A stretch of DNA of 64,000 nucleotides from Chloroflexota bacterium (GCA_022561215.1 JADFRQ010000006.1:14626-78625); one strand, 5' to 3'; shown: positions 2,445 to 15,684, counted from the first letter of the stretch. Translations and numbers: made by a program. Notes: generated by a model not told the origin, from the letters alone.

Positions 2445-3041
2445 ATGAGCATACATATGCGCATCTTCATCGCAATAAATTTATCCCATATTCTGCGGGA
2501 AAAACTTGGCTTATTGACCGAGAAACTCAAGGTTGAGCTTGGCCAAAAACACATCCGTTGGGTTAAGCCTGGCGGGATGCATCTGACGCTTAAATTTATT
2601 GGAGAGACACCATCCGAGCAGGTCGATGGGATAATGAACACGATTGCAGAAATCGCAAAAAAAACCAATCGATTTGAAATGCATGTATCCGGTTTAGGCT
2701 GTTTGCCCGATTGTGATCGGCCGAGGGTGATTAGCATCGATTTAGTAGAGCCCTCCGGCGAACTGCGAATCTTGCATAAACGATTGGAAGCGGAACTTAT
2801 TAAGGTCGGAATAAAAAGTGACCGACGCGAATTTCATCCACACCTCACCTTAGGACGAATTCGTAGAGGAACATCGTTGATTGCTTTGAAATCACTCGGT
2901 CAAGAAATTAGGTCGAGAGATGCGATTGACTTAGGAGTGGAGGCAGTCAAGAAATTTTCTCTGATCAAAAGTGAACTGCGGCCGAGTGGGCCTGTCTACA
3001 GCGTGTTATCATCCCATGCCTTGGAAAATGTTAAAATATGA
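2445..3041 (+). CDS. thpR: RNA 2',3'-cyclic phosphodiesterase (2H phosphoesterase, ThpR/LigT family)
   Basis: Two H-x-T-x motifs at the expected spacing (GMHLTLKF and HPHLTLGR). The N-terminus MRIFIAINL is typical of the family, so the real start is probably the ATG at 2457. Confidence 0.8.
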   Translation: MSIHMRIFIAINLSHILREKLGLLTEKLKVELGQKHIRWVKPGGMHLTLKFIGETPSEQVDGIMNTIAEIAKKTNRFEMHVSGLGCLPDCDRPRVISIDLVEPSGELRILHKRLEAELIKVGIKSDRREFHPHLTLGRIRRGTSLIALKSLGQEIRSRDAIDLGVEAVKKFSLIKSELRPSGPVYSVLSSHALENVKI

Positions 3042-3541
3042 CGATGTTTACCGCGATTTCGGTTATCGGATCAGGAACTTGCAGTGCCAAACACGCCAAA
3101 TTGGCGGAAGAAGTAGGGTTTCTATTGGGGAGCAGGAAAGTGATAGTTATTTGCGGCGGGCGAGGGGGTGTGATGGAAGCTGTAAGCAAGGGGGTTCAGA
3201 AAGCTGGAGGGTTGACGATAGGTATTTTGCCTGGAATGGACGCTAATGCGGGAAATAAATACCTAAGCCTTGCGATTCCCACGGGCCTCGGCCAGGCGCG
3301 CAATGCGATAATTGCCTATGCCGGTCAAGCTGTAATTGCGATCGGAGGCAGTTACGGTACACTATCAGAAATAAGCCTCGCGCGAAAAGCGGGCCGCCGA
3401 GTGATTGGTCTGGAAACCTGGCATGCGGAAGAAGCCGATGGAAGTTTGTTGGACATTGAATACGCAAAAGACCCCGAGGAAGCGGTTCGCAAGTCACTCG
3501 GTGCTCCAAGTTCTTCGGGTAAGGAATCGAGAACACAATGA
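3038..3541 (+). CDS. TIGR00725/LOG-like (SLOG superfamily) Rossmann-fold protein
   Basis: ISVIGSG...VICGGRGGVMEAVSKG...GGLTIGILPG...RNAIIAYAGQAVIAIGGSYGTLSEISLA matches the LOG/TIGR00725 pattern (GGxxGxMEA, PGGxGTxxE-like). Its ATG overlaps the thpR stop as ATGA. Confidence 0.7.
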   Translation: MTMFTAISVIGSGTCSAKHAKLAEEVGFLLGSRKVIVICGGRGGVMEAVSKGVQKAGGLTIGILPGMDANAGNKYLSLAIPTGLGQARNAIIAYAGQAVIAIGGSYGTLSEISLARKAGRRVIGLETWHAEEADGSLLDIEYAKDPEEAVRKSLGAPSSSGKESRTQ

Positions 3542-3891
3542 CGGATCGTGCCCTTGCAATTGCCCGCACAATCGTTGATAGCTTGGAAAAGAAGAAGGCG
3601 GAGGACATTTTACTCATCGATCTAATTGGTGTGTGCTCATTTACGGACTATTTCGTTATCTGTACCGGATCAAGCGAACGCGCCTTGAAGTCGTTAGCTG
3701 ATGAAGTGAAGGGGAGGGTAAAGGAAGTTCATGTCATTAATGAGAGAAGTACAGAAGGCGATTCGACGAGCGGGTGGGTGCTTATCGATTACGGTGATGT
3801 GATCCTGCATTTATTTTCAAAATTGTTGCGAAAATATTATCAACTTGAAGAGTTGTGGAGTGAAGGAAAGTTCCTTCTTAGGTTCCAATAA
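3538..3891 (+). CDS. rsfS: Ribosome silencing factor RsfS (iojap-like)
   Basis: KKAEDILLIDLIGVCSFTDYFVICTGSSERALKSLADEV...GWVLIDYGDVILHLF is the canonical RsfS core. Its ATG overlaps the upstream stop as ATGA. Confidence 0.85.
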   Translation: MTDRALAIARTIVDSLEKKKAEDILLIDLIGVCSFTDYFVICTGSSERALKSLADEVKGRVKEVHVINERSTEGDSTSGWVLIDYGDVILHLFSKLLRKYYQLEELWSEGKFLLRFQ

Positions 3892-4119: not shown

Positions 4120-4587
4120 TTATTCGCCCTCATAAATCCACGCGTCGTTTGCCCGATCCCAATCGACCAACTCGTCTTCAGAAAACCATAATTTTATTTC
4201 TACTGCCGCCGTCTGTGTTTCGTCCGACGCGTGGGTAAGGTTTCTTCCCACCTGTAAGGCGTAATCGTGCCTCACAGATCCAGGTGATGCATCTCTTGGA
4301 TGAGTGGCCCCCATGGTTGCACGGACCAAAGCAACCACGTCCGGTCCTTCCCATACCATGGCAACAACCGGAGAAGATGTGATATATGCAATAAGCCCGT
4401 CATAAAAGGCTTTGCCCTGATGCACGGCGTAATGCTGTTCGGCGAGCGATCGATCGAGCGAGGTAAATTTTATGGCGATAAGCTTTAATCCGCGATTTTC
4501 AAGACGCGTAATAATCGCACCGATTAATCCTCGTTGAACGGCATCTGGTTTCAGAAGTACAAGAGTGCGTTCCACATCTCCCTCCAC
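4120..4587 (-). CDS. ndk: Nucleoside-diphosphate kinase
   Basis: ERTLVLLKPDAVQRGLIG...YITSSPVVAMVWEG...GSVRHDY...NLTHASD includes the active-site His context NxxHxSD. The start is probably the second GTG at 4575 (MERTLVLLKPD), preceded by GGAGGGAG. Confidence 0.9.
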   Translation of the reverse strand: MEGDVERTLVLLKPDAVQRGLIGAIITRLENRGLKLIAIKFTSLDRSLAEQHYAVHQGKAFYDGLIAYITSSPVVAMVWEGPDVVALVRATMGATHPRDASPGSVRHDYALQVGRNLTHASDETQTAAVEIKLWFSEDELVDWDRANDAWIYEGE

Positions 4588-4592
4588 AAAAC

Positions 4593-4620
4593 TTGAACTC
4601 GGGGATTAAGCCGAGTTCAA
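4593..4620 (-). terminator. Perfect 10-bp stem-loop between the TPR gene and ndk (possible terminator or attenuator)
   Basis: The arms are ttgaactcgg (4593-4602) and ccgagttcaa (4611-4620), with an 8-nt loop. On the minus strand it is followed by GUUUUGUGGAGG, which is partly U-rich and contains the ndk RBS. Confidence 0.35.
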
Positions 4621-4647: not shown

Positions 4648-7600
4648 TTAGACGGCTTCCATCCCCCTTCGATAAGCCGTGATGGCCTCCGTTATTTGAC
4701 CGTCTTGCATGTAAGCATCTCCCAATGCCTGCCATAACGTGGGAGCCTTCGGTGTATTATTTACAGCTGTTTTCAAATCAGCTATCACATCCTCAATTTC
4801 CTTCTTTTGATCGATCAGTCGTGTGTAAAAATCAAGGGCTCGATCCAAATCTCCACCTTGCAAAGAAGAGCGTGCAATTTTTAACTGGTTTTGTGTTGAT
4901 GTTTCATCGATTTCATCTTCTTTCGGTTCGATTTTTTCGGCCTCCACATCATCCAGAACCCCGGCCTCTATTTCGTCTGACGGATCTTCGGGCACACTTC
5001 CTGAGCCTTCCACGGATTGTGAATCGACTTTTTCTAGTGCGCTTGCCGGAGCTCCCACCTCAATCTCGATCAAATTCATTTCGTCTACCTTAGGAGGAAT
5101 TCGCTCCTCGAGTTGATCCTCTAGGGACATTGCCAGATCGGATTTCTTGGCGATGATGGTGTCCAATATCGAAGGATCTTCAGCGGTAGCAACACTACCA
5201 GGCTGCACAGCCTCCCCATCATCTTCTTCCGACCGTTCCGCCACTTCTTCCAGCCAATCAGGCACTTCCGAACTTTCTGATTCTGCCGATTCAGATTGGA
5301 AATCAGGAGCAATAACATCTTCATATTCTTCATCTGTCGCGAGCTTCTCAAGCCACTCTAACCCTGCTTCATATTCCTCGGGAAGCTCATCTTGAGTAGC
5401 GGTTGGGGATTCGCTTGGCTTAATTTCAGCGTCCTTTTTGACATCCCCTGCCGCTGCTTCTGGTTCTTGATCAAAAATGGGGATTTCCTCAATTTTTACC
5501 TCATGTTTGGAGGCCAAGCCTTCAAGAAAGCCATAAACCTCTTCCTCATCCATCGGCTTATCCAGGTGTTCGGCTACTGCCCCATCGATCCCATCCGCCG
5601 CCGTCGCAAGCTCTTCTGCGGCGCCCATTTCCGGCTCGGGAGTTACTTCCTGAGCCGACTCCTTAAGCCACTCAAGGCGATTCTCGATTTCTCTATCGGC
5701 GCCGGTTTGTGAGGGCGGTACATCACCCTCAGCATCTACGCTGACGATCTCAGGGTCCCGAGAGACTTCTTCATTCAGATCGGGCGCTATTTCTTGAAAA
5801 GTTCCTGGCTCACTGATCTGTATTTCGGGTACTTCGGGTGAAGTTTCTATTTCATCGGACTCAATTTGCTGCAGCCAATCCCCAGCCTCTGCGCCGTTTA
5901 TTGTTTCTCGATCCGCATCCCCATTTGTCGGTTCGCTCGCGGAAAGGTCTTGCAGCCAATCGGGGGCTATTTCCTCTGTGCTCGGGCCTTCGATTGTGCG
6001 CTGCACGCTCTGCTCAGACGGCTCACTTTTCGATCCACCAGCCGCAGCCTCCCCGATTGGGTCTTCGGGGATTGCTTTGATCGCCTCACGCAGAGGCATC
6101 TCGTCAGGAACATTTTCCATTGGATCTGCTTGACTTCCTTCTTCCCCATCAACTTCCTGTTCAGGTGCCTGCATTTCAGTCAGCCATTCTGGACCGGTAT
6201 CCTCAACTGAAGCCGCTTGTTGACTTTCTGACTCAGATGATTCGGAAAGAGATTGTAGCCATTCCGGTTCAACCTCATCCACTGGGGATTCAGCTGCTTG
6301 ATCTTCGATCGAATCCGTCAGCCGTTCAGGAGATTCAGGAAGTGCATCAAGCGCAGCAATTTCCTGCTCATCCGCCTCATCTGTAACCCCCTGGAGCCAT
6401 CCGGACTGGAGATCTCCGGCAGCGCTTTCATCTTCATCATCTTTCCCGATCACCCCTTTTAACCAATCCGGGGGTTCTTCTTGGCTATTCCCGACTTGCA
6501 ATTCTGGTTGCGACAATTCGGCGGCGCTCGCATATTCGGACTTTTCCTCGGTAGCCTCCGGACTCGCAGGCAATGGATCATCGTCGACCGGAAGAGCCCC
6601 AACCCAATCAGGAGCAGATTCAACATTTTGAAGGCCGGCATCTGATTCCTGTGGTTCACTTATTTCTTCGAGCCACGCTGGTGGGGAAGATTCAGACTCC
6701 GCGGTCACTTCCTGCTCCTTGGCTTTATTGGAAGCCACATCTGTCTCTGGCTGTGGGCCATCCTGCGCACTGAGCCCCAAGGTAGATTCCCTGTTTTCGA
6801 GCGGCGGTTCCGTTCTTGCTGGTTGCTCAATCTGCTGGGGGGATTCTGACGGAGTAGATGCGATTAGTGGGCCAGTGCCGCGCATCCATGTAGGGACATC
6901 ATCTGCAGGCGCGCGTGAACCCTCGCCCGATTTATCCCCTAACCAGGTAACAATCGTGTCCGTGGCGCCCGGAGCCGCAGGTTCCAACCACGGAGGAAGT
7001 TCTTGGGTTTCACCATGATTCGGTTCATCAGATGTTGTACTTTGCTCTGGAGAGTCGGAGCTCATCTGATCTTTGCCTTCTTCATCAGCAGATTCACTCA
7101 TATAATTTTCAAGCCTGCTCATATTCGGTTCTGAACTACTTTCATGCTCAGGAATCTCACTTTCACCAGCACTATCCTCGGATAGGGTATTTTCGAAACT
7201 TAAATTTTCCTGTGGACTTCCCTCAACTTCAATGTCGGCCCTTTCTGCAATCTGCCTATCTGGGGATCCAGCTGCAGTTTCATTTGGCTCAACGGAGGGA
7301 ACTTGAGGTAACTCTTGATCGCTGGACGTTATTTCGGAAAGCCAATCCGGAAATTCGGCAGCCGCAATATCCCCCGGGTTATCGTCGGCATCTTCTAAAG
7401 CCTGGCCTGAGCTTTGATCTTGAGCACCGCCATCATCGGCTTCCGAACTGCCTTCAGAGCCCGAGCCTGCCTGCTGCATCCATTCCGGCAATTTGTCTCC
7501 GTTGGGTGGGGTCGCCCCCTCAAATGGGTGGATGGTAGGCGATTCTCCAAAATCAGCATCATCTGCATCATTCTTCGGCTGGGCTTCGGCTCGCAGCCAT

Positions 7601-8487
7601 TCGGGCATATTTTCATCAAATTCGGAAGATGAATCATCGTCTTTAAGGTTAACGCTAAGGGATGCCACCCAATCTGGTTGCTCTGCGACCTGGGTCATCG
7701 ATTCGAGACCACCTGACCACATCAGTCGTTCGATTAGAATGGAGCTTGTTTCGACAGATAACGGATCATCCATCGGGTTTTTTAGATAGGCGAAGTAAGG
7801 ATCCAGAGAAATAAGGCGCCGTACATTAGACTTGGCTTCTTCTGTCTTTCCACTCTCTTGGAGGAGTGCAGCAGTTATTCGGTTCGCATCACGACAATGG
7901 GGTAATTTTTCAAGGATCAGGCTGCAAATTTTGGCTGCTTCCAAGCGCTGGTCGGTCCGCCAATAAGTATTGGCAAGTAGCACCTGTAAATCGGGGCGGT
8001 CGGGATCTTCTGAGAGCGCTTTGCGCAGCTCTGTCGTTGCATACGCATACAATTCACCATGCGAATACATTCGCGCAAGTGCACCACGCGTTGGACGAAC
8101 TCTTTGTGGTTCGAGCCCATCGCGCTTGCCAATTAGGCGCTTTAATTCCTGTTCGATGGCAGCATTGCCTGGTTTTGACTCCGAGGAGCGCTCCATGTGC
8201 CAAATTGCTGCATCTAAATTTCCCTCATCTTCCCGAATAATCGCCATTCCAACATGCGATACAAAATCATCGGGAATGGCCGAGAGAACACGCTGAAAAA
8301 TATCTGCGGCGTCCCCATAGCGTTTTGATTCAAGATAAGCTTTTCCTAGAAGACGATAGGTGTCGATGTGCTTGGGAAAGGACTTCAGGATGTGGCGGCA
8401 ATGCGCGATGGCTTCCTCGAGCTGATCGCTGTCTTCGATAATATCGTCGATTTGCTGCACGTATTGGCGCAGGCTTATTTCGGCCAT
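4648..8487 (-). CDS. Giant TPR-repeat protein with a hyper-acidic disordered central linker
   Basis: 1279-aa ORF. The N-terminal ~250 aa and the C-terminal ~80 aa have TPR-like helical repeat patterns (YRLLGKAYLESKRYGDAADIFQRVL...; LWQALGDAYMQDGQITEAITAYRRGME). The middle ~900 aa is dominated by E/D/S/P/A. An AGGA RBS precedes the ATG. Confidence 0.8.
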   Translation of the reverse strand: MAEISLRQYVQQIDDIIEDSDQLEEAIAHCRHILKSFPKHIDTYRLLGKAYLESKRYGDAADIFQRVLSAIPDDFVSHVGMAIIREDEGNLDAAIWHMERSSESKPGNAAIEQELKRLIGKRDGLEPQRVRPTRGALARMYSHGELYAYATTELRKALSEDPDRPDLQVLLANTYWRTDQRLEAAKICSLILEKLPHCRDANRITAALLQESGKTEEAKSNVRRLISLDPYFAYLKNPMDDPLSVETSSILIERLMWSGGLESMTQVAEQPDWVASLSVNLKDDDSSSEFDENMPEWLRAEAQPKNDADDADFGESPTIHPFEGATPPNGDKLPEWMQQAGSGSEGSSEADDGGAQDQSSGQALEDADDNPGDIAAAEFPDWLSEITSSDQELPQVPSVEPNETAAGSPDRQIAERADIEVEGSPQENLSFENTLSEDSAGESEIPEHESSSEPNMSRLENYMSESADEEGKDQMSSDSPEQSTTSDEPNHGETQELPPWLEPAAPGATDTIVTWLGDKSGEGSRAPADDVPTWMRGTGPLIASTPSESPQQIEQPARTEPPLENRESTLGLSAQDGPQPETDVASNKAKEQEVTAESESSPPAWLEEISEPQESDAGLQNVESAPDWVGALPVDDDPLPASPEATEEKSEYASAAELSQPELQVGNSQEEPPDWLKGVIGKDDEDESAAGDLQSGWLQGVTDEADEQEIAALDALPESPERLTDSIEDQAAESPVDEVEPEWLQSLSESSESESQQAASVEDTGPEWLTEMQAPEQEVDGEEGSQADPMENVPDEMPLREAIKAIPEDPIGEAAAGGSKSEPSEQSVQRTIEGPSTEEIAPDWLQDLSASEPTNGDADRETINGAEAGDWLQQIESDEIETSPEVPEIQISEPGTFQEIAPDLNEEVSRDPEIVSVDAEGDVPPSQTGADREIENRLEWLKESAQEVTPEPEMGAAEELATAADGIDGAVAEHLDKPMDEEEVYGFLEGLASKHEVKIEEIPIFDQEPEAAAGDVKKDAEIKPSESPTATQDELPEEYEAGLEWLEKLATDEEYEDVIAPDFQSESAESESSEVPDWLEEVAERSEEDDGEAVQPGSVATAEDPSILDTIIAKKSDLAMSLEDQLEERIPPKVDEMNLIEIEVGAPASALEKVDSQSVEGSGSVPEDPSDEIEAGVLDDVEAEKIEPKEDEIDETSTQNQLKIARSSLQGGDLDRALDFYTRLIDQKKEIEDVIADLKTAVNNTPKAPTLWQALGDAYMQDGQITEAITAYRRGMEAV
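5242..7677 (-). repeat. Array of 18 x-x-W-[LMV] peptide motifs (10 are strict P-[DE]-W-[LMV]) inside the acidic linker
   Basis: Read directly from the translation, in order: PDWV, PEWL, PEWM, PDWL, PPWL, VTWL, PTWM, PAWL, PDWV, PDWL, SGWL, PEWL, PEWL, PDWL, GDWL, LEWL, LEWL, PDWL. Every Trp between about aa 270 and 1085 sits in this context. Confidence 0.85.
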
Positions 8488-8985
8488 GGGCGTATCCTAG
8501 CTTAAAGTATGCATCAGTTGGAATGTTTGTGCAAGCAAACGGCCTTTTGGGCGCATCCACAGCACATTTGCACTCGATATGATTGCATTTTGATTTGATC
8601 TGGATTCAATGTCCCGAAAATTTGGATTTAAAAGGAGAAAAGATATCATTTTCATACAAATGCATCGGATGGTAACTATTTGGCCAATCTGCGCTTACCA
8701 AATGGAAGGCTTCCAATAGTTAATAGGAATGGGACTGTTATAAACATAAGCCACTGCGTGTGTTTGTAGAGAACGGCGCCTGTTTCTGGGCCCATTCCAC
8801 TTGCAGCGCAAACAAGATGATTGATGTCGGGGCGAGTTGGAAATATATTTGGAAGCCAGACGCATGCCCCCAGCTGCCGTACACCTGGGGTACACGGCCA
8901 GCATCTTTATGAAGTTAACATACGCGTAGAACGGATTCTGTACCAAACAGACCCGTCCCGAATCCTCGTGTTGCCTGCATGGATC

Positions 8986-11874: not shown

Positions 11875-12813
11875 ATGATTAAAGTTGAAGGGTTGACCAA
11901 GTTCTACGGAGATTTCCCCGCCATTCAGGATCTCACATTTAATGCGAAGCGCGGAGAAATCCTGGGTTTCTTGGGTCCTAATGCAGCGGGCAAAACTACA
12001 ACCATGCGAATATTGGCCGGGTATATGCCTCCCAGCTCTGGCTCCGTTCGTATTGCAGGCTTCGATGTTCTTGAAGAATCGCTGGAAGTCCGTCGACGAA
12101 TTGGCTACCTTCCGGAGACGGTCCCTCTTTATCCTGAGATGAGTATATGGGAGTACCTGGAGTACATGGGGTCGCTGCGTAAGGTCGATAATCTCGATAA
12201 GCGCATTGATGCCGTGATTGATGAAGTCAACCTAGGGGATAGAGAGAGAAGTTACATTGGAAATCTCTCGAAAGGATTGAGGCAACGTGTCGGACTGGCG
12301 CAAGCTCTCATCCATCAGCCAGAGGTCCTCATCCTTGATGAACCAACAATAGGCCTTGATCCCGCCCAAATCATTGAAGTTCGTGAGTTGATTCAAGGCC
12401 TTGGTCAGGAAAGGACAATTCTGCTCTCGACTCACATACTGACGGAAGCACAACAAATTTGCGACCGAGTGATTATCATCAACAAGGGTCGCATGGTAGC
12501 AGAGGATACTCCGGAAAATTTACAATCCCAGATCGCGGGAGCTACTAAAATTATTGTTCGCGCTTCATCCGAAACTCGAGAACTGGTCGAACTTATTGAA
12601 ACCATGCCGCAGAAAATGGATGTTATCGCTGGTGATAGTGAGGGTGAGGTGATGATTAGCGCAGCACCTGGCTTGGATATTCGCCCTCTTCTGGCAAGGA
12701 AAATTTTAGATGCCGGGCTCGATCTTCTGGAGCTTCGAACGACTGGGATAAGCCTGGAAGAAATATTCCTGCAGTTAACGCAATCGGAAGATAAGGATGA
12801 AGGTGAAGAATAG
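11875..12813 (+). CDS. ABC transporter ATP-binding protein (ABC-2/GldA-like)
   Basis: Walker A GPNAAGKTT, signature LSKGLRQRV, Walker B VLILDEPTIGLD and H-loop STHIL. Confidence 0.9.
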   Translation: MIKVEGLTKFYGDFPAIQDLTFNAKRGEILGFLGPNAAGKTTTMRILAGYMPPSSGSVRIAGFDVLEESLEVRRRIGYLPETVPLYPEMSIWEYLEYMGSLRKVDNLDKRIDAVIDEVNLGDRERSYIGNLSKGLRQRVGLAQALIHQPEVLILDEPTIGLDPAQIIEVRELIQGLGQERTILLSTHILTEAQQICDRVIIINKGRMVAEDTPENLQSQIAGATKIIVRASSETRELVELIETMPQKMDVIAGDSEGEVMISAAPGLDIRPLLARKILDAGLDLLELRTTGISLEEIFLQLTQSEDKDEGEE

Positions 12814-12816
12814 TCC

Positions 12817-13548
12817 ATGAGGACAGTTTTCATCATTGCCAAAAGAGAATTTCGTCTTTTTTTTGTTTCTCCTGCCGCCTATTCGGTTTCCGTGATGATC
12901 TTCCTTATCCTCGGAGGAATATTTTTCATTAATATCTACTTTGGCCTGAGAGGTGGTCAAATTGCACCAGATGGGAGAATGGTTATCAGCCCACTGGTCA
13001 CGATTCTGCTCTTCGCCACGCCAGCGATTACGATGCGGCTTCTGGCGGATGAACAGCGCATGGGTACGATCGAATTGTTATTAACCTCCCCGGTAAGAAT
13101 TTGGGAACTTGTGGTAGGCAAGTGGTTGGGGGCCACAGGCTTTATGATGCTTATCCTCGGGGTGACCTGGATTTATCCGATCATCATTCACCGCATGACC
13201 AATCCCGGAATCGATCAGGGCGTGCTCATTGCAGCTTATCTGGGCCTTGTTTTTATGATCAGCGCCATGCTCGCCATTGGGACGTTTATCTCATCACTTT
13301 TTAATAACCCTATCCCGGCATTTTTCATCACGCTTACTTTGATGTTATTCCTGTGGATCATAGGCGGCCTGGGATCGGGGTCAGGCACTGCAAGTGAAAT
13401 AGCGAGCAATTTGAGTTTTGTCGCGCACTATTACGATAATCTTTATCGTGGAGTCATTGACCTCGGCGATTTGGTTTACTACATGAGCCTCACAATCATC
13501 TCCTTATTTCTCGGAACACAGGTTCTCGAATCGAGGAGATGGAGGTGA
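12817..13548 (+). CDS. ABC-2 type transporter permease (GldF-like)
   Basis: 243 aa with about 6 predicted TM helices. The N-terminus IAKREFRLFFVSPAAY is typical of ABC-2 permeases. It lies 4 nt after the ATPase gene. Confidence 0.75.
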   Translation: MRTVFIIAKREFRLFFVSPAAYSVSVMIFLILGGIFFINIYFGLRGGQIAPDGRMVISPLVTILLFATPAITMRLLADEQRMGTIELLLTSPVRIWELVVGKWLGATGFMMLILGVTWIYPIIIHRMTNPGIDQGVLIAAYLGLVFMISAMLAIGTFISSLFNNPIPAFFITLTLMLFLWIIGGLGSGSGTASEIASNLSFVAHYYDNLYRGVIDLGDLVYYMSLTIISLFLGTQVLESRRWR

Positions 13549-15095
13549 AAAAACGGCTGCTTTCCAACTCTGTGCCCTTCTATATCCTGGGAATAACGTC
13601 CTTACTGGTTTCGGCCTCCTGGTATGCCATCAACCAATTGGTCGATGTTGGCGTAACCGTGGGAATTGCGCTAACAGTGATTTTATTAGTGATTGGTTAC
13701 GCAATTGATCCGCAACGCGTGAAAGGCTGGCTTCGAGGTCGGCAGGCGAAATATGGAAGCAATGCCCTGGTGCTCTCGTTAGCAGTTATCGGCATATTCG
13801 CAGTCATCAATTACATCGTGTATGACAATCCCAAGCAATGGGACTTGACCGAGGATCAGGAATACACATTATCTCCAGAGACGCGAGTAATTCTTGAAGA
13901 ATTGCCTGAGCAAGTTAATATCATCGGATTCTATACTCCGAGTGTCTCTGCCGCGCGCGATAATATCCGCCCCTTGTTGGACCAATTTCAAATTCTCGGC
14001 GCAGGGAAATTAAATTATAATTTCATCGATCCCTTAGAGAATCCATTCATGGCAGAGCAATATGGGGTCTCACGCGATGCCTCACTCGTCGTCGCTTTTG
14101 GAGATAGTTCCGAGGTTGTGGAGTTTGCTTCCGAGCAACGCATCGCGGAGGCTATGATCCGATTAATGAACCCGGGCGAAAGTCAAATTTATTATCTTGC
14201 CGGCCATTCAGAAAGAGATTTCGAGAGCAATGAAGCTAGTGGCTACGGCCGAGTCCGTTCCGCTCTGGAGGCCAGGAACTACGCAATTTCTGAATTGAAT
14301 CTGATCGTTAATGCACAAATTCCGGCGGATACTGATCTGCTCTTGATCGCGGCACCGCAGGTCCAGTTGACGGAAGGGGAAGTTGAACTGGTGAAAGAAT
14401 ATTTGGCCGCAGGTGGTTCGTTAATCGTGCTCTCGGAACCTGGACTGAATATAGAAGGAGAAGAGGATCTCCTTGAAGATTACCTTACTACGGATTGGGG
14501 AATTGAATTACGTAATGATTTTGTTGTGGATCTCACGTCAAGTTTACGGCTTTCTGGAATATCTGCGCAGTACGCTATGCATCCCATTACGGAAGACATC
14601 CAGAATTTAGTGACATTTTTTCCCTCCATTCGCAGCATCAGATTCTCGGAAATGGGGGAAGGCACGATAAATCGTGTGGAGTTGGTTCTCACAAGTGAAC
14701 AATCATGGGGAGAAAGCGATCTGCAATCATTTAATGAACAAGGAGTGTTGGAATATGACGAAGAGAGTGACGCCCTTGGACCATTGGTGTTGGTTGCAAC
14801 GGCTGAAAACAACGTCCAGGGATCGCGCATAGTTGTATTTGGCGACTCCGATTTTGCATCAAACGGTTTCTTCTTTGAACTTGGCAATGGTGATTTATTG
14901 ATCAATAGTGTGGATTGGGCTATAGGAAACGACCAACTTATTAGTTTGACCAGCAAACCGTCGACCCAGCGGTTCGTTGTTCCGCCCTCCAATCAGACCA
15001 TTTGGATAATCCTAATTCTTACTTTGTTCGTTATTCCGGGATCAGTAATCTTTTTCGGTGTAATGGTTTGGTGGCAACGAAGGAATACGCGCTAG
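13539..15095 (+). CDS. GldG-like auxiliary component of the ABC-2 system
   Basis: It has N- and C-terminal TM anchors around a large extracytoplasmic domain. WDLTEDQEYTLSPETRVILEELPEQVNIIGFYT is the characteristic GldG-family start. It overlaps the permease gene by 10 nt. Confidence 0.7.
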   Translation: MEVKKRLLSNSVPFYILGITSLLVSASWYAINQLVDVGVTVGIALTVILLVIGYAIDPQRVKGWLRGRQAKYGSNALVLSLAVIGIFAVINYIVYDNPKQWDLTEDQEYTLSPETRVILEELPEQVNIIGFYTPSVSAARDNIRPLLDQFQILGAGKLNYNFIDPLENPFMAEQYGVSRDASLVVAFGDSSEVVEFASEQRIAEAMIRLMNPGESQIYYLAGHSERDFESNEASGYGRVRSALEARNYAISELNLIVNAQIPADTDLLLIAAPQVQLTEGEVELVKEYLAAGGSLIVLSEPGLNIEGEEDLLEDYLTTDWGIELRNDFVVDLTSSLRLSGISAQYAMHPITEDIQNLVTFFPSIRSIRFSEMGEGTINRVELVLTSEQSWGESDLQSFNEQGVLEYDEESDALGPLVLVATAENNVQGSRIVVFGDSDFASNGFFFELGNGDLLINSVDWAIGNDQLISLTSKPSTQRFVVPPSNQTIWIILILTLFVIPGSVIFFGVMVWWQRRNTR

Positions 15096-15105
15096 CGAGC
15101 GGCTC

Positions 15106-15684
15106 ATGATTCGGCGATCAACCTGGATGGTCCTGGGAAGCTTTTTTGCCTTGTTGGTCGTGGCAATTGTCATTAGCCGATCAGACCCGGAACTTGATGC
15201 CTCGACGCCAGTGCCGCGCCCTGAACCGCTGTGGGAATTAACAGCATCATCGATCGAGGGTCTGCTTGTCGAAAATTTAGAATCCGGTGTGCTGGTTGAC
15301 TTACGGAGAGATGTTGAGTTTGGTTGGCTGCTGCTTCAACCTCAACAGGGTCCAGCGGATGCTGCCAAAATAGAAGAAGCAGTTAGTTGGCTGGCGCGAC
15401 CTCAGCCGTTGCGAGTGTTAGCTTCAGAAGAAAACCTTCTTCAATTTGGCCTGCTTGATCCGAGAGGGCGAGTGACAATAATTCTAAATGAGGAGGAGAG
15501 CGAAATTTTGATAATTGGCAATGATGTGCCTACCGGCAATTCAACATACATCGCAATCGAAGGAAAACCAGAAGTTTATGTAGTGAGCAAATTCAGTATC
15601 GATAGCGTAACAAATCTTACAGTCGAGGATTTGCTTGTAGCGCAAGATGTTGAATTGGATGAGACGGAAACGCCGTTGCCATGA
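15106..15684 (+). CDS. DUF4340-like membrane-anchored protein (usual partner of GldG-like genes)
   Basis: N-terminal TM helix, then W.L..P...ADAAKIEEAVSWL...FGLLDPRGRVTI...GN..YIAIEG...VYVV, which fits the DUF4340 pattern as I remember it. Confidence 0.5.
   Translation: MIRRSTWMVLGSFFALLVVAIVISRSDPELDASTPVPRPEPLWELTASSIEGLLVENLESGVLVDLRRDVEFGWLLLQPQQGPADAAKIEEAVSWLARPQPLRVLASEENLLQFGLLDPRGRVTIILNEEESEILIIGNDVPTGNSTYIAIEGKPEVYVVSKFSIDSVTNLTVEDLLVAQDVELDETETPLP

Follow-up and report, generated by a model that had tools for sequence, protein, structure and literature searches.

Eukaryotic hub proteins are typified by long disordered regions that carry arrays of conserved short linear motifs, and few such regions are believed to occur in bacteria. 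A stretch of 64,000 nucleotides from a Chloroflexota bacterium of marine sediment (GCA_022561215.1, JADFRQ010000006.1:14626-78625; the whole stretch is referred to as the window) encodes a protein that raises the question of whether such an array exists in this lineage and what it might do there. The protein consists of two folded tetratricopeptide repeat (TPR) ends joined by a long acidic linker, in which tryptophan occurs 18 times and is each time followed by leucine, methionine or valine. On evidence that is computational throughout, we conclude that these motifs very probably constitute a selected multivalent docking array, and we lean, with much less assurance, towards the gene product being a cytoplasmic scaffold that works through multivalent short linear motifs.

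The earlier note on this DNA, made without database searches, had described a protein of 1279 amino acids (aa) on the minus strand with TPRs at both ends, a description on which the single open reading frame (ORF), Pfam and AlphaFold2 (AF2) agree. The sequence AGGA precedes the ATG by 7 nt, and with three substitutions the product is the same protein as the database cluster P0001 (a 90%-identity representative). In all, the chain contains 22 Trp residues, three of them in the N-terminal folded domain, 18 at aa 273-1078 and one at the C-terminal end. The contexts of the 18 linker residues match exactly those listed in the earlier note, including the ten strict copies: PDWV, PEWL, PEWM, PDWL, PPWL, VTWL, PTWM, PAWL and PDWV for motifs 1-9, and PDWL, SGWL, PEWL, PEWL, PDWL, GDWL, LEWL, LEWL and PDWL for motifs 10-18. 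The residue following Trp is thus L, M or V in 18/18 cases (L 14, M 2, V 2), Pro stands at position -2 in 13/18, D or E at -1 likewise in 13/18, and the strict form P[DE]W[LMV] is present in 10/18. When the linker was shuffled in 20,000 composition-preserving permutations, the mean number of W-[LMV] was about two and the maximum nine, and the strict motif was seen at most twice, so that the observed context was never reproduced; the analytic probability of 18/18 W-[LMV] is 4e-17. The spacing between motifs is irregular, as had been remarked, and ranges over 15-118 aa rather than about 15-100. Since at the DNA level the array is free of tandem repeats and its direct repeats do not exceed 24 nt, its copies are not recent duplications, and recent duplication was discarded as the source of the array. 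Shuffles, orthologs and AF2 models, on which the earlier note had built its three refuting conditions, gave none of the refuting outcomes and concur with its proposal of a selected short linear motif as opposed to a duplicated domain.

The linker has the composition rich in E, D, S, P and A that had been noted for a stretch of ~900 aa between the TPRs (17% E, 11% S, 10% A, 10% D, 9% P). Its charged fraction over aa 261-1197 is 0.32 with a net charge per residue of -0.23, and aa 261-1185 contain 249 D/E vs 42 K/R, a net charge of -207. In two AF2 models (aa 1-640 and aa 900-1279) the predicted local distance difference test score (pLDDT) of the linker lies mostly below 50, and outside the motifs its identity to orthologs is 8-25% in 40-residue blocks of a 40-sequence alignment. 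Neither a signal-peptide-like N-terminus nor a hydrophobic segment was found in the protein (maximum 19-residue hydropathy 1.05), and the TPR domain begins at residue 1 in nearly all of the 150 best representatives. As membrane segment and signal peptide are absent and the orthologs align from residue 1, the sequence indicates that the protein is most likely cytoplasmic. A secreted or cell-envelope role was rejected for the lack of both signals, and with it the earlier suggestion of cell-envelope organisation, which the start of the orthologs at the TPR does not favour either.

Pooling of 3,029 linker Trp residues from 120 homologs gave a profile of the motif that we call class A, with the consensus E-x-[IAV]-P-[DE]-W-L-x-[EGD]-[LI]-[AG], of which EEPPDWLKGVIG is an example. 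Relative to W at position 0, E or D occupies position -4 in 52%, I, A or V position -3 in 46% and P position -2 in 66%; position -1 is D in 34%, E in 19%, S in 11%, G in 10% and T in 7%. On the other side, position +1 is L in 68%, M in 9%, V in 5% and I in 4%, followed by E, G or D at +3 (60%), L, I or V at +4 (50%) and A or G at +5 (56%). In the window protein the -5 and -4 positions are mostly acidic and +4 is L, I, V or M in 12/18 motifs. The flanks had been taken as unconserved; this view has to be revised, positions -5 to +5 being informative.

Position -1 favours D, S, G and T, and D, S, T and G are classical helix N-cap residues. In the N-terminal half, AF2 places helices of 5-7 residues at six of the nine motifs (W273, W336, W382, W515, W605 and W628; block pLDDT 50-65). 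Five of these helices begin at W-1 and end near +5, the sixth (510-515) ends at W515, and one more short helix in this half (aa 457-464) coincides with no Trp; the model of aa 900-1279 shows another short helix at W1078. The models thus show no folded repeats in the linker, which is of low confidence and forms no more than short helices where the motifs lie. The helical hydrophobic moment is higher in motif windows (0.42) than in the remaining linker (0.29; p = 1.7e-4), and W, L(+1) and L/I(+4) share one helical face. Near the C-terminal end a second pattern occurs, class B, described by [DE]n-x-[FLY]-x-[WF]-LExLAxxxG and exemplified by EAGLEWLEKLATD, with helices of 14-16 residues. Three longer AF2 helices lie in this part. 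The one around W940 has W in 30/40 orthologs; the second follows the consensus DDDEVFxWLEgLAArQ, whose W is F in the window protein and W in 20/40 orthologs; the third follows PEEpeEGLEWLEqLAxeRG, with W1045 being W in 39/40. A protein search with the class-B region (aa 922-1095) returned no match at E <= 0.01, its own family included, and is hence uninformative on other architectures.

A search with the whole protein retrieved more than 2,000 relatives, the best 120 of which are without exception 'TPR repeat proteins' of 1,036-1,652 aa and, wherever named, come from Anaerolineales or Chloroflexi metagenome-assembled genomes (MAGs). An exhaustive HMMER search with the N-terminal TPR domain (N-TPR) gave 1,692 clusters at 50% identity (E <= 1e-30), and when one genome was scanned per species, 476 proved to carry the gene. 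Among the 80 of these that were listed, almost all are Anaerolineales, Anaerolineae, Chloroflexia or Chloroflexota MAGs, and two bear other Chloroflexota-compatible or unassigned labels. One 7.2-kb contig binned as a Methanosarcinales archaeon (L045, JAIWHF010000127.1) carries the TPR gene and then ndk in the Anaerolineales arrangement, and is most likely mis-binned. In some MAG contigs (L068, L037 and L024, plus strand, gene region) the gene is broken into several overlapping ORFs, which suggests frameshift errors of the assembly, or pseudogenes.

The motif array is kept in every family member examined, in 12-39 copies. The first 120 homologs have 18-39 linker Trp residues; 53 species orthologs have 17-35, of which 87% are followed by L, M, V or I, at a linker charge of -96 to -303, a Trp density of 2-3.5% and a correlation of copy number with length of r = 0.70; 103 further representatives, whose N-TPR is 48-69% identical, still have 12-35, with 82% followed by L, M, V or I. 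The positions of the motifs are conserved across orthologs while the linker drifts: of the 18 Trp columns, 12 show W in 37 or more of the 40 orthologs aligned, counts that are somewhat optimistic as MAFFT tends to align rare Trp residues, and W273, W336, W382, W500, W515 and W605 are invariant among 60 sequences. That the order of the motifs is conserved and individual instances have flanks of their own (IPxWMREAGW, PGATxTIVTWLGDR) nevertheless speaks for a real positional signal. The best-conserved island of the linker contains two motifs; the block around it (aa 481-520) is 51% identical in 40 sequences vs 8-25% elsewhere, and P498, W500, G507, T511, I512, W515 and L516 are invariant in 60. 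At six other sites the window protein has lost a Trp (G343, T434, Y652, R722, E796 and F986) that is present in 20-39 of 40 orthologs. The R722 column is W in 27/40 orthologs, and P0001 reads SPEWLTDS at this place, so that motif copies are polymorphic between close strains. Such turnover is expected if valency counts more than any single copy.

Beyond this gene, none with at least two motif copies was found among 4,922 other ORFs of the window and 83 related loci, every additional match being a piece of this very gene from a contig with a frameshift or a truncation. Literature searches on Anaerolineae TPR proteins, the PDWL motif and disordered Chloroflexi Trp proteins found no description of the family or the motif.

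The two ends of the protein are confidently folded in the AF2 models, the N-TPR with 14 helices at pLDDT 88-98 (aa 1-640, modelled with 60 homologs) and the C-terminal TPR module (C-TPR) at pLDDT 96-98. The N-TPR comprises six repeats in two triplets (aa 7-108 and 131-232), between which a helix is inserted at 109-123; the cap at its C-terminal side takes in W257. Their register was set from the periodicity of Pro-32, which canonical TPR repeats carry, together with the known features of TPRs; since Pro recurs every 34 residues (38/72/106 and 162/196/230), we read the domain as two triplets around the inserted helix. On the whole protein Pfam finds no models other than those for TPRs, namely TPR_19, TPR_16 and TPR_1 at aa 19-231 and TPR_2, TPR_14 and TPR_8 at aa 1179-1278, with TPR_19 (E = 4e-20) and TPR_2 (E = 1e-15) both passing the Pfam cut-offs. 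Foldseek matches the N-TPR to generic TPR solenoids (CTPR, OGT, PEX5, APC) and the C-TPR to three-repeat modules such as CTPR3, HOP TPR1, Hip and YscY; together with a PDB sequence search it gives generic TPR matches at high root-mean-square deviation. Pfam, the AF2 solenoids, the Pro periodicity and Foldseek thus all place the protein among the TPR repeat proteins of the Pfam TPR clan. Named bacterial TPR proteins in NCBIfam (PrsT, MamA, PilW, LapB, BcsC, PgaA, Tgl and others) were tried and rejected: PrsT, the best match, reaches 65 bits vs a cut-off of 312, and all 22 matches are far under the curated cut-offs and confined to TPR stretches. The generic TPR fold is the only family membership that holds. 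Within the family the ends are strongly conserved, the N-TPR being 56-85% identical among 15 orthologs and having invariant residues such as R45, K49, L52, E53, I83, E86 and D87, and TPR2-3 being nearly invariant on both faces in 233 sequences. In the C-TPR, W1252, Q, L, G, D, Y and G are invariant among 60 sequences.

How might such an array work? We propose that each element would be a pre-formed, N-capped amphipathic helix of ~1.5 turns, with Pro-Asp as the cap, and that its face of W(i), L(i+1) and L/I(i+4) would fit into a hydrophobic groove on some folded receptor. Owing to the acidic spacers, the chain would stay expanded and the hydrophobic faces exposed, and the motifs would not collapse together, while many weak sites might sum to high avidity or gather many copies of the receptor. 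The candidate receptor that we put first would be the family's own near-invariant TPR module, to which binding in trans could create a self-assembling network or condensate, and binding in cis a closed, autoinhibited state. In favour of it, TPR modules co-occur with the array in every ortholog and are extremely conserved. TPR grooves are known to bind Trp-centred peptides (PMC6214655), and PEX5 joins a TPR domain to a disordered region in which several amphipathic W motifs occur (PMC8086558).

Several observations weigh against this proposal, and most of them against docking on the protein's own TPR ends, an idea already raised in the earlier note that gains no support here. No receptor was identified in this analysis, and single-chain AF2 modelling of the N-TPR with nine motifs leaves the motifs at pLDDT 50-65 without confident docking. 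The N-TPR has a net charge of -7 and is therefore not obviously attractive to acid-flanked motifs. Its concave and convex faces are alike in conservation (entropy 1.34 vs 1.35, p = 0.91, for putative positions in 233 sequences), so that the comparison speaks neither for nor against a conserved peptide groove. About 20 motifs per one or two TPR modules would moreover be a poor stoichiometry for pure self-binding, and the class-B pLDDT of 84-89 in the models cannot be assigned to docking on the C-TPR. The sole experimental or expression evidence is an ambiguous match to a run labelled metatranscriptomic, which contains 71% of the gene's words; because its depth is DNA-like and intergenic sequence is covered too, we do not take it as proof of expression. 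On balance the protein's own TPR is a possible but doubtful receptor, and a separate abundant partner is about as likely.

That second option, in which the W-helices would recruit many copies of another abundant folded protein while the TPRs anchor the scaffold to a different conserved partner or site, making the protein a tether or concentrator instead of a self-assembling network, draws on the same excess of motifs over TPR modules and on the failure of the class-A motifs to dock on the N-TPR in AF2. The near-invariance of TPR2-3 on both faces suggests that the TPR has a partner or partners of its own, the gene shares a conserved block of housekeeping genes with ndk, rsfS and ligT, and there is a precedent in PEX5, whose W motifs bind PEX14 and PEX13 and not the PEX5 TPR (PMC8086558, PMC11024197). 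Yet the neighbourhood yields no candidate partner, its ORFs being without the motif or an obvious W-binding domain, and the synteny with ndk may be just inherited gene order; we consider this arrangement a serious minority option. A folded receptor might also be dispensable altogether, if Trp/Leu patches act as generic hydrophobic stickers in a polyanion that drives complex coacervation (with Mg2+, polyamines or basic proteins such as ribosomal or nucleoid ones) or serves as a polyelectrolyte buffer of the cytoplasm. The extreme charge of the linker, a Trp density that stays at 2-3.5% in all orthologs, the scaling of copy number with length and the gain and loss of single copies would all fit such a model, but it would make P at -2, D/E at -1, L at +1 and L/I at +4 needless, and equally the positions invariant in 60 orthologs and the near-invariant TPR modules, so that we regard it as improbable.

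Anchoring at a membrane interface seems more improbable still. Amphipathic helices with Trp on their hydrophobic face could sit in the lipid headgroup region and tie protein or membrane surface into a cortical layer, and the W-helices of PEX5 also bind membrane mimics weakly (PMC8086558). The helices here are just 5-7 residues long, though, their flanks are strongly acidic with almost no basic residues, which anionic bacterial membranes should repel, and the protein has neither a membrane segment nor a lipidation signal. We attach practically no weight to an absence of function, with the W context a by-product of composition, a hidden folded repeat or a mis-called frame. Nothing was found in its favour: shuffling never recreates the context, more than 200 homologs conserve it, the gene is one long ORF with conserved ends and synteny, and the linker is disordered in AF2 and free of DNA repeats. 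Chance, composition and a folded-repeat artefact are excluded by the shuffles together with the AF2 models. The scaffold reading remains the one that we favour.

The surroundings of the gene are conserved as well. Directly downstream and on the same strand lies ndk, encoding nucleoside diphosphate kinase, in 63/67 complete orthologous loci; it is faced, in convergent orientation, by rsfS, a SLOG gene and ligT, and this block is kept beside the TPR gene across dozens of Anaerolineales species, often with a H+-pyrophosphatase gene upstream of the TPR gene. The hairpin that stands between the TPR gene and ndk might serve as a terminator or attenuator within a gene pair that is otherwise conserved; it is a consensus match only, of a kind no commoner in the region than in shuffles. 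Promoter and terminator matches in the region generally occur at background frequency. The 498-bp non-coding gap to the H+-pyrophosphatase gene (8488-8985) is free of Rfam matches, its minus strand shows no convincing promoter of the sigma-70 type, and Rfam and tRNA scans of the window found no RNA elements. The coordinates of all these features are collected in Table 1.

Table 1. Features of the TPR gene, its product and the adjoining genes (positions counted from the first nucleotide of the window).
Feature	Position	Strand	Evidence or remark
TPR / acidic-linker / TPR protein gene, 1279 aa	4648-8487	minus	single ORF; stop codon 4648-4650
N-terminal TPR domain, aa 1-260	7708-8487	minus	AF2, Pfam, Foldseek, conservation
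Polyanionic disordered linker, aa 261-1197 (~940 aa)	4897-7707	minus	AF2, charge, low ortholog identity
Array of 18 W-[LMV] motifs	5242-7677	minus	spans P(-2) of first motif to +4 of last
W codons 1-9	7669-71, 7597-99, 7480-82, 7342-44, 6988-90, 6943-45, 6886-88, 6673-75, 6604-06	minus	
W codons 10-18	6463-65, 6397-99, 6259-61, 6184-86, 5956-58, 5875-77, 5668-70, 5353-55, 5254-56	minus	
Best-conserved linker island, aa 497-517 (ELPPWLEPAAPGATDTIVTWLGD)	6937-6999	minus	two motifs
R722, Trp-less motif copy in SPERLTDS	6322-6324	minus	codon CGG, one base from TGG
Longer helix around W940, aa 930-945 (ADREIENRLEWLKESA)	5653-5700	minus	AF2 block pLDDT 60-64
Class-B long helix, aa 981-996 (EEVYGFLEGLASKHEV)	5500-5547	minus	AF2 block pLDDT about 89
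Class-B long helix, aa 1039-1052 (YEAGLEWLEKLATD)	5332-5373	minus	AF2 block pLDDT about 84
C-terminal TPR module, aa 1198-1279, five helices, 2.5 repeats	4651-4896	minus	AF2, Pfam, Foldseek
Terminator-like hairpin, TPR gene-ndk gap (60 nt)	4593-4620	minus	10-bp stem, then GTTTTGTGG; weak T tract
ndk (nucleoside diphosphate kinase)	4120-4587	minus	Pfam NDK E = 5e-53
rsfS	3538-3891	plus	
SLOG/LOG-like gene	3038-3541	plus	
ligT	2445-3041	plus	

Two further gene sets of the window deserve mention in their own right. At 730-2061 on the plus strand, 2.6 kb from the TPR gene, a response regulator of 443 aa is encoded that carries its receiver domain in the middle of the protein (aa 210-313), with ~200 N-terminal and ~130 C-terminal residues lacking a Pfam match; it is syntenic in several orthologous loci and adjoins a SpoIIE-type phosphatase in some. 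A plus-strand cluster of four genes (11875-15684) encodes an ABC ATPase, an ABC-2 permease, an ABC_transp_aux protein with DUF7088 and a DUF4340 protein; we take the ABC_transp_aux protein to be GldG-like and the cluster to resemble transporter sets of the GldA/F/G type.

Is the array, then, a bacterial instance of a Trp-motif system known from elsewhere? The closest analogue in its way of working is PEX5, which has 7-8 WxxxF/Y motifs in its disordered N-terminal half and a TPR domain at the C-terminus (PMC8086558, PMC9795577). Both proteins unite in one chain long disorder, irregularly spaced Trp motifs that form short amphipathic helices, and a TPR; the presence of such helices in a disordered region of a TPR protein is borne out here by AF2, the hydrophobic moment and Pfam. 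Both also have a hydrophobic partner residue at i+4 from W (L, I, V or M in 12/18 here). This residue is aliphatic in the window protein, though, with F or Y in 0/18, so that the motif departs from the WxxxF/Y consensus, and it is further determined by L at +1 and P-[DE] at -2/-1. Furthermore, the family has 18-39 copies rather than about 8, a far more acidic linker and TPRs at both ends, and it belongs to a bacterium without a peroxisome or a known counterpart of PEX14 or PEX13. The PEX5 TPR does appear among the Foldseek matches, as a generic TPR only; there is no homology beyond the TPR fold.

The earlier note had pointed to kinesin, whose light-chain TPR binds W-acidic motifs with micromolar affinity (SKIP TNLEWDDSAI, calsyntenin), of which cargo adaptors may have two copies (PMC6214655, PMC5739299). 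A short Trp-centred motif in acidic disordered surroundings is common to both, and in kinesin it is recognised by a TPR, but the analogy fails on sequence. The W-acidic consensus calls for D/E at +1, found in 0/18 motifs here against L/M/V in 18/18, and for L/M at -2, found in 2/18 against Pro in 13/18; in addition, W-acidic peptides bind in an extended form whereas the motifs here are predicted to be helical, and the kinesin light-chain groove uses electrostatic attraction while the N-TPR is net acidic. GW182/TNRC6 proteins, whose W motifs bind pockets of Argonaute and CCR4-NOT (PMC5314787, PMC4615383), resemble the family in having many irregularly spaced Trp residues in a poorly conserved disordered scaffold, with Trp as the main conserved feature and an importance of copy number and redundancy. 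They differ in that their Trp is flanked by G, S or T and inserts as a single side chain, in contrast to the helical W-L-x-x-L unit (G adjacent to W in 1/18 here; -1: 1/18, +1: 0/18), and they are less acidic and have no TPR. Acidic activation domains share the setting of W, L and F in acidic disorder, where acidity keeps the hydrophobic residues available ('acidic exposure'; 10.1101/230987, PMC10550315), but they serve eukaryotic transcription and have no fixed motif grammar or positional conservation like that described here. Among bacteria, WalK of Streptococcus mutans has a conserved Trp amid acidic residues in a disordered tail that binds a response regulator (PMC9087282), although this is a single Trp in a different protein family. 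The LC3-interacting region/Atg8-interacting motif (LIR/AIM), [WFY]-x-x-[LIV], does not apply either, L, I, V, M or F standing at +3 in 0/18.

As the consensus tests for PEX5, W-acidic, GW and LIR motifs all fail, the motif forms a class of its own, which would work along similar lines. The family is apparently a single syntenic gene in Anaerolineales with an exceptionally clean motif grammar and ~20 copies per protein. If a receptor is found, the family would become a tractable bacterial model of multivalent motif-driven assembly and would define P-[DE]-W-L-x-x-[LI] as a new specificity of peptide recognition; it would also give the first access to the function of a conserved, abundant gene in a little-studied phylum that is widespread in sediment and wastewater. 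Should there be no receptor, the protein would remain remarkable as a natural polyanion with hydrophobic stickers. More speculatively, and with odds that we judge to be long, the family could be a lineage-wide bacterial counterpart of Trp-motif hubs of the PEX5/GW182 type, in which ~20 PDWLxxL helices would bind the protein's own TPRs or a dedicated receptor and so build a cytoplasmic network, condensate or shuttle for Anaerolineales housekeeping; it would then be the first bacterial system organised by a high-valency array of short linear motifs. The layout is known from eukaryotic hub proteins and has, to our knowledge, not been described in bacteria, and what is new here is a lineage-wide bacterial version of it with a grammar of its own.

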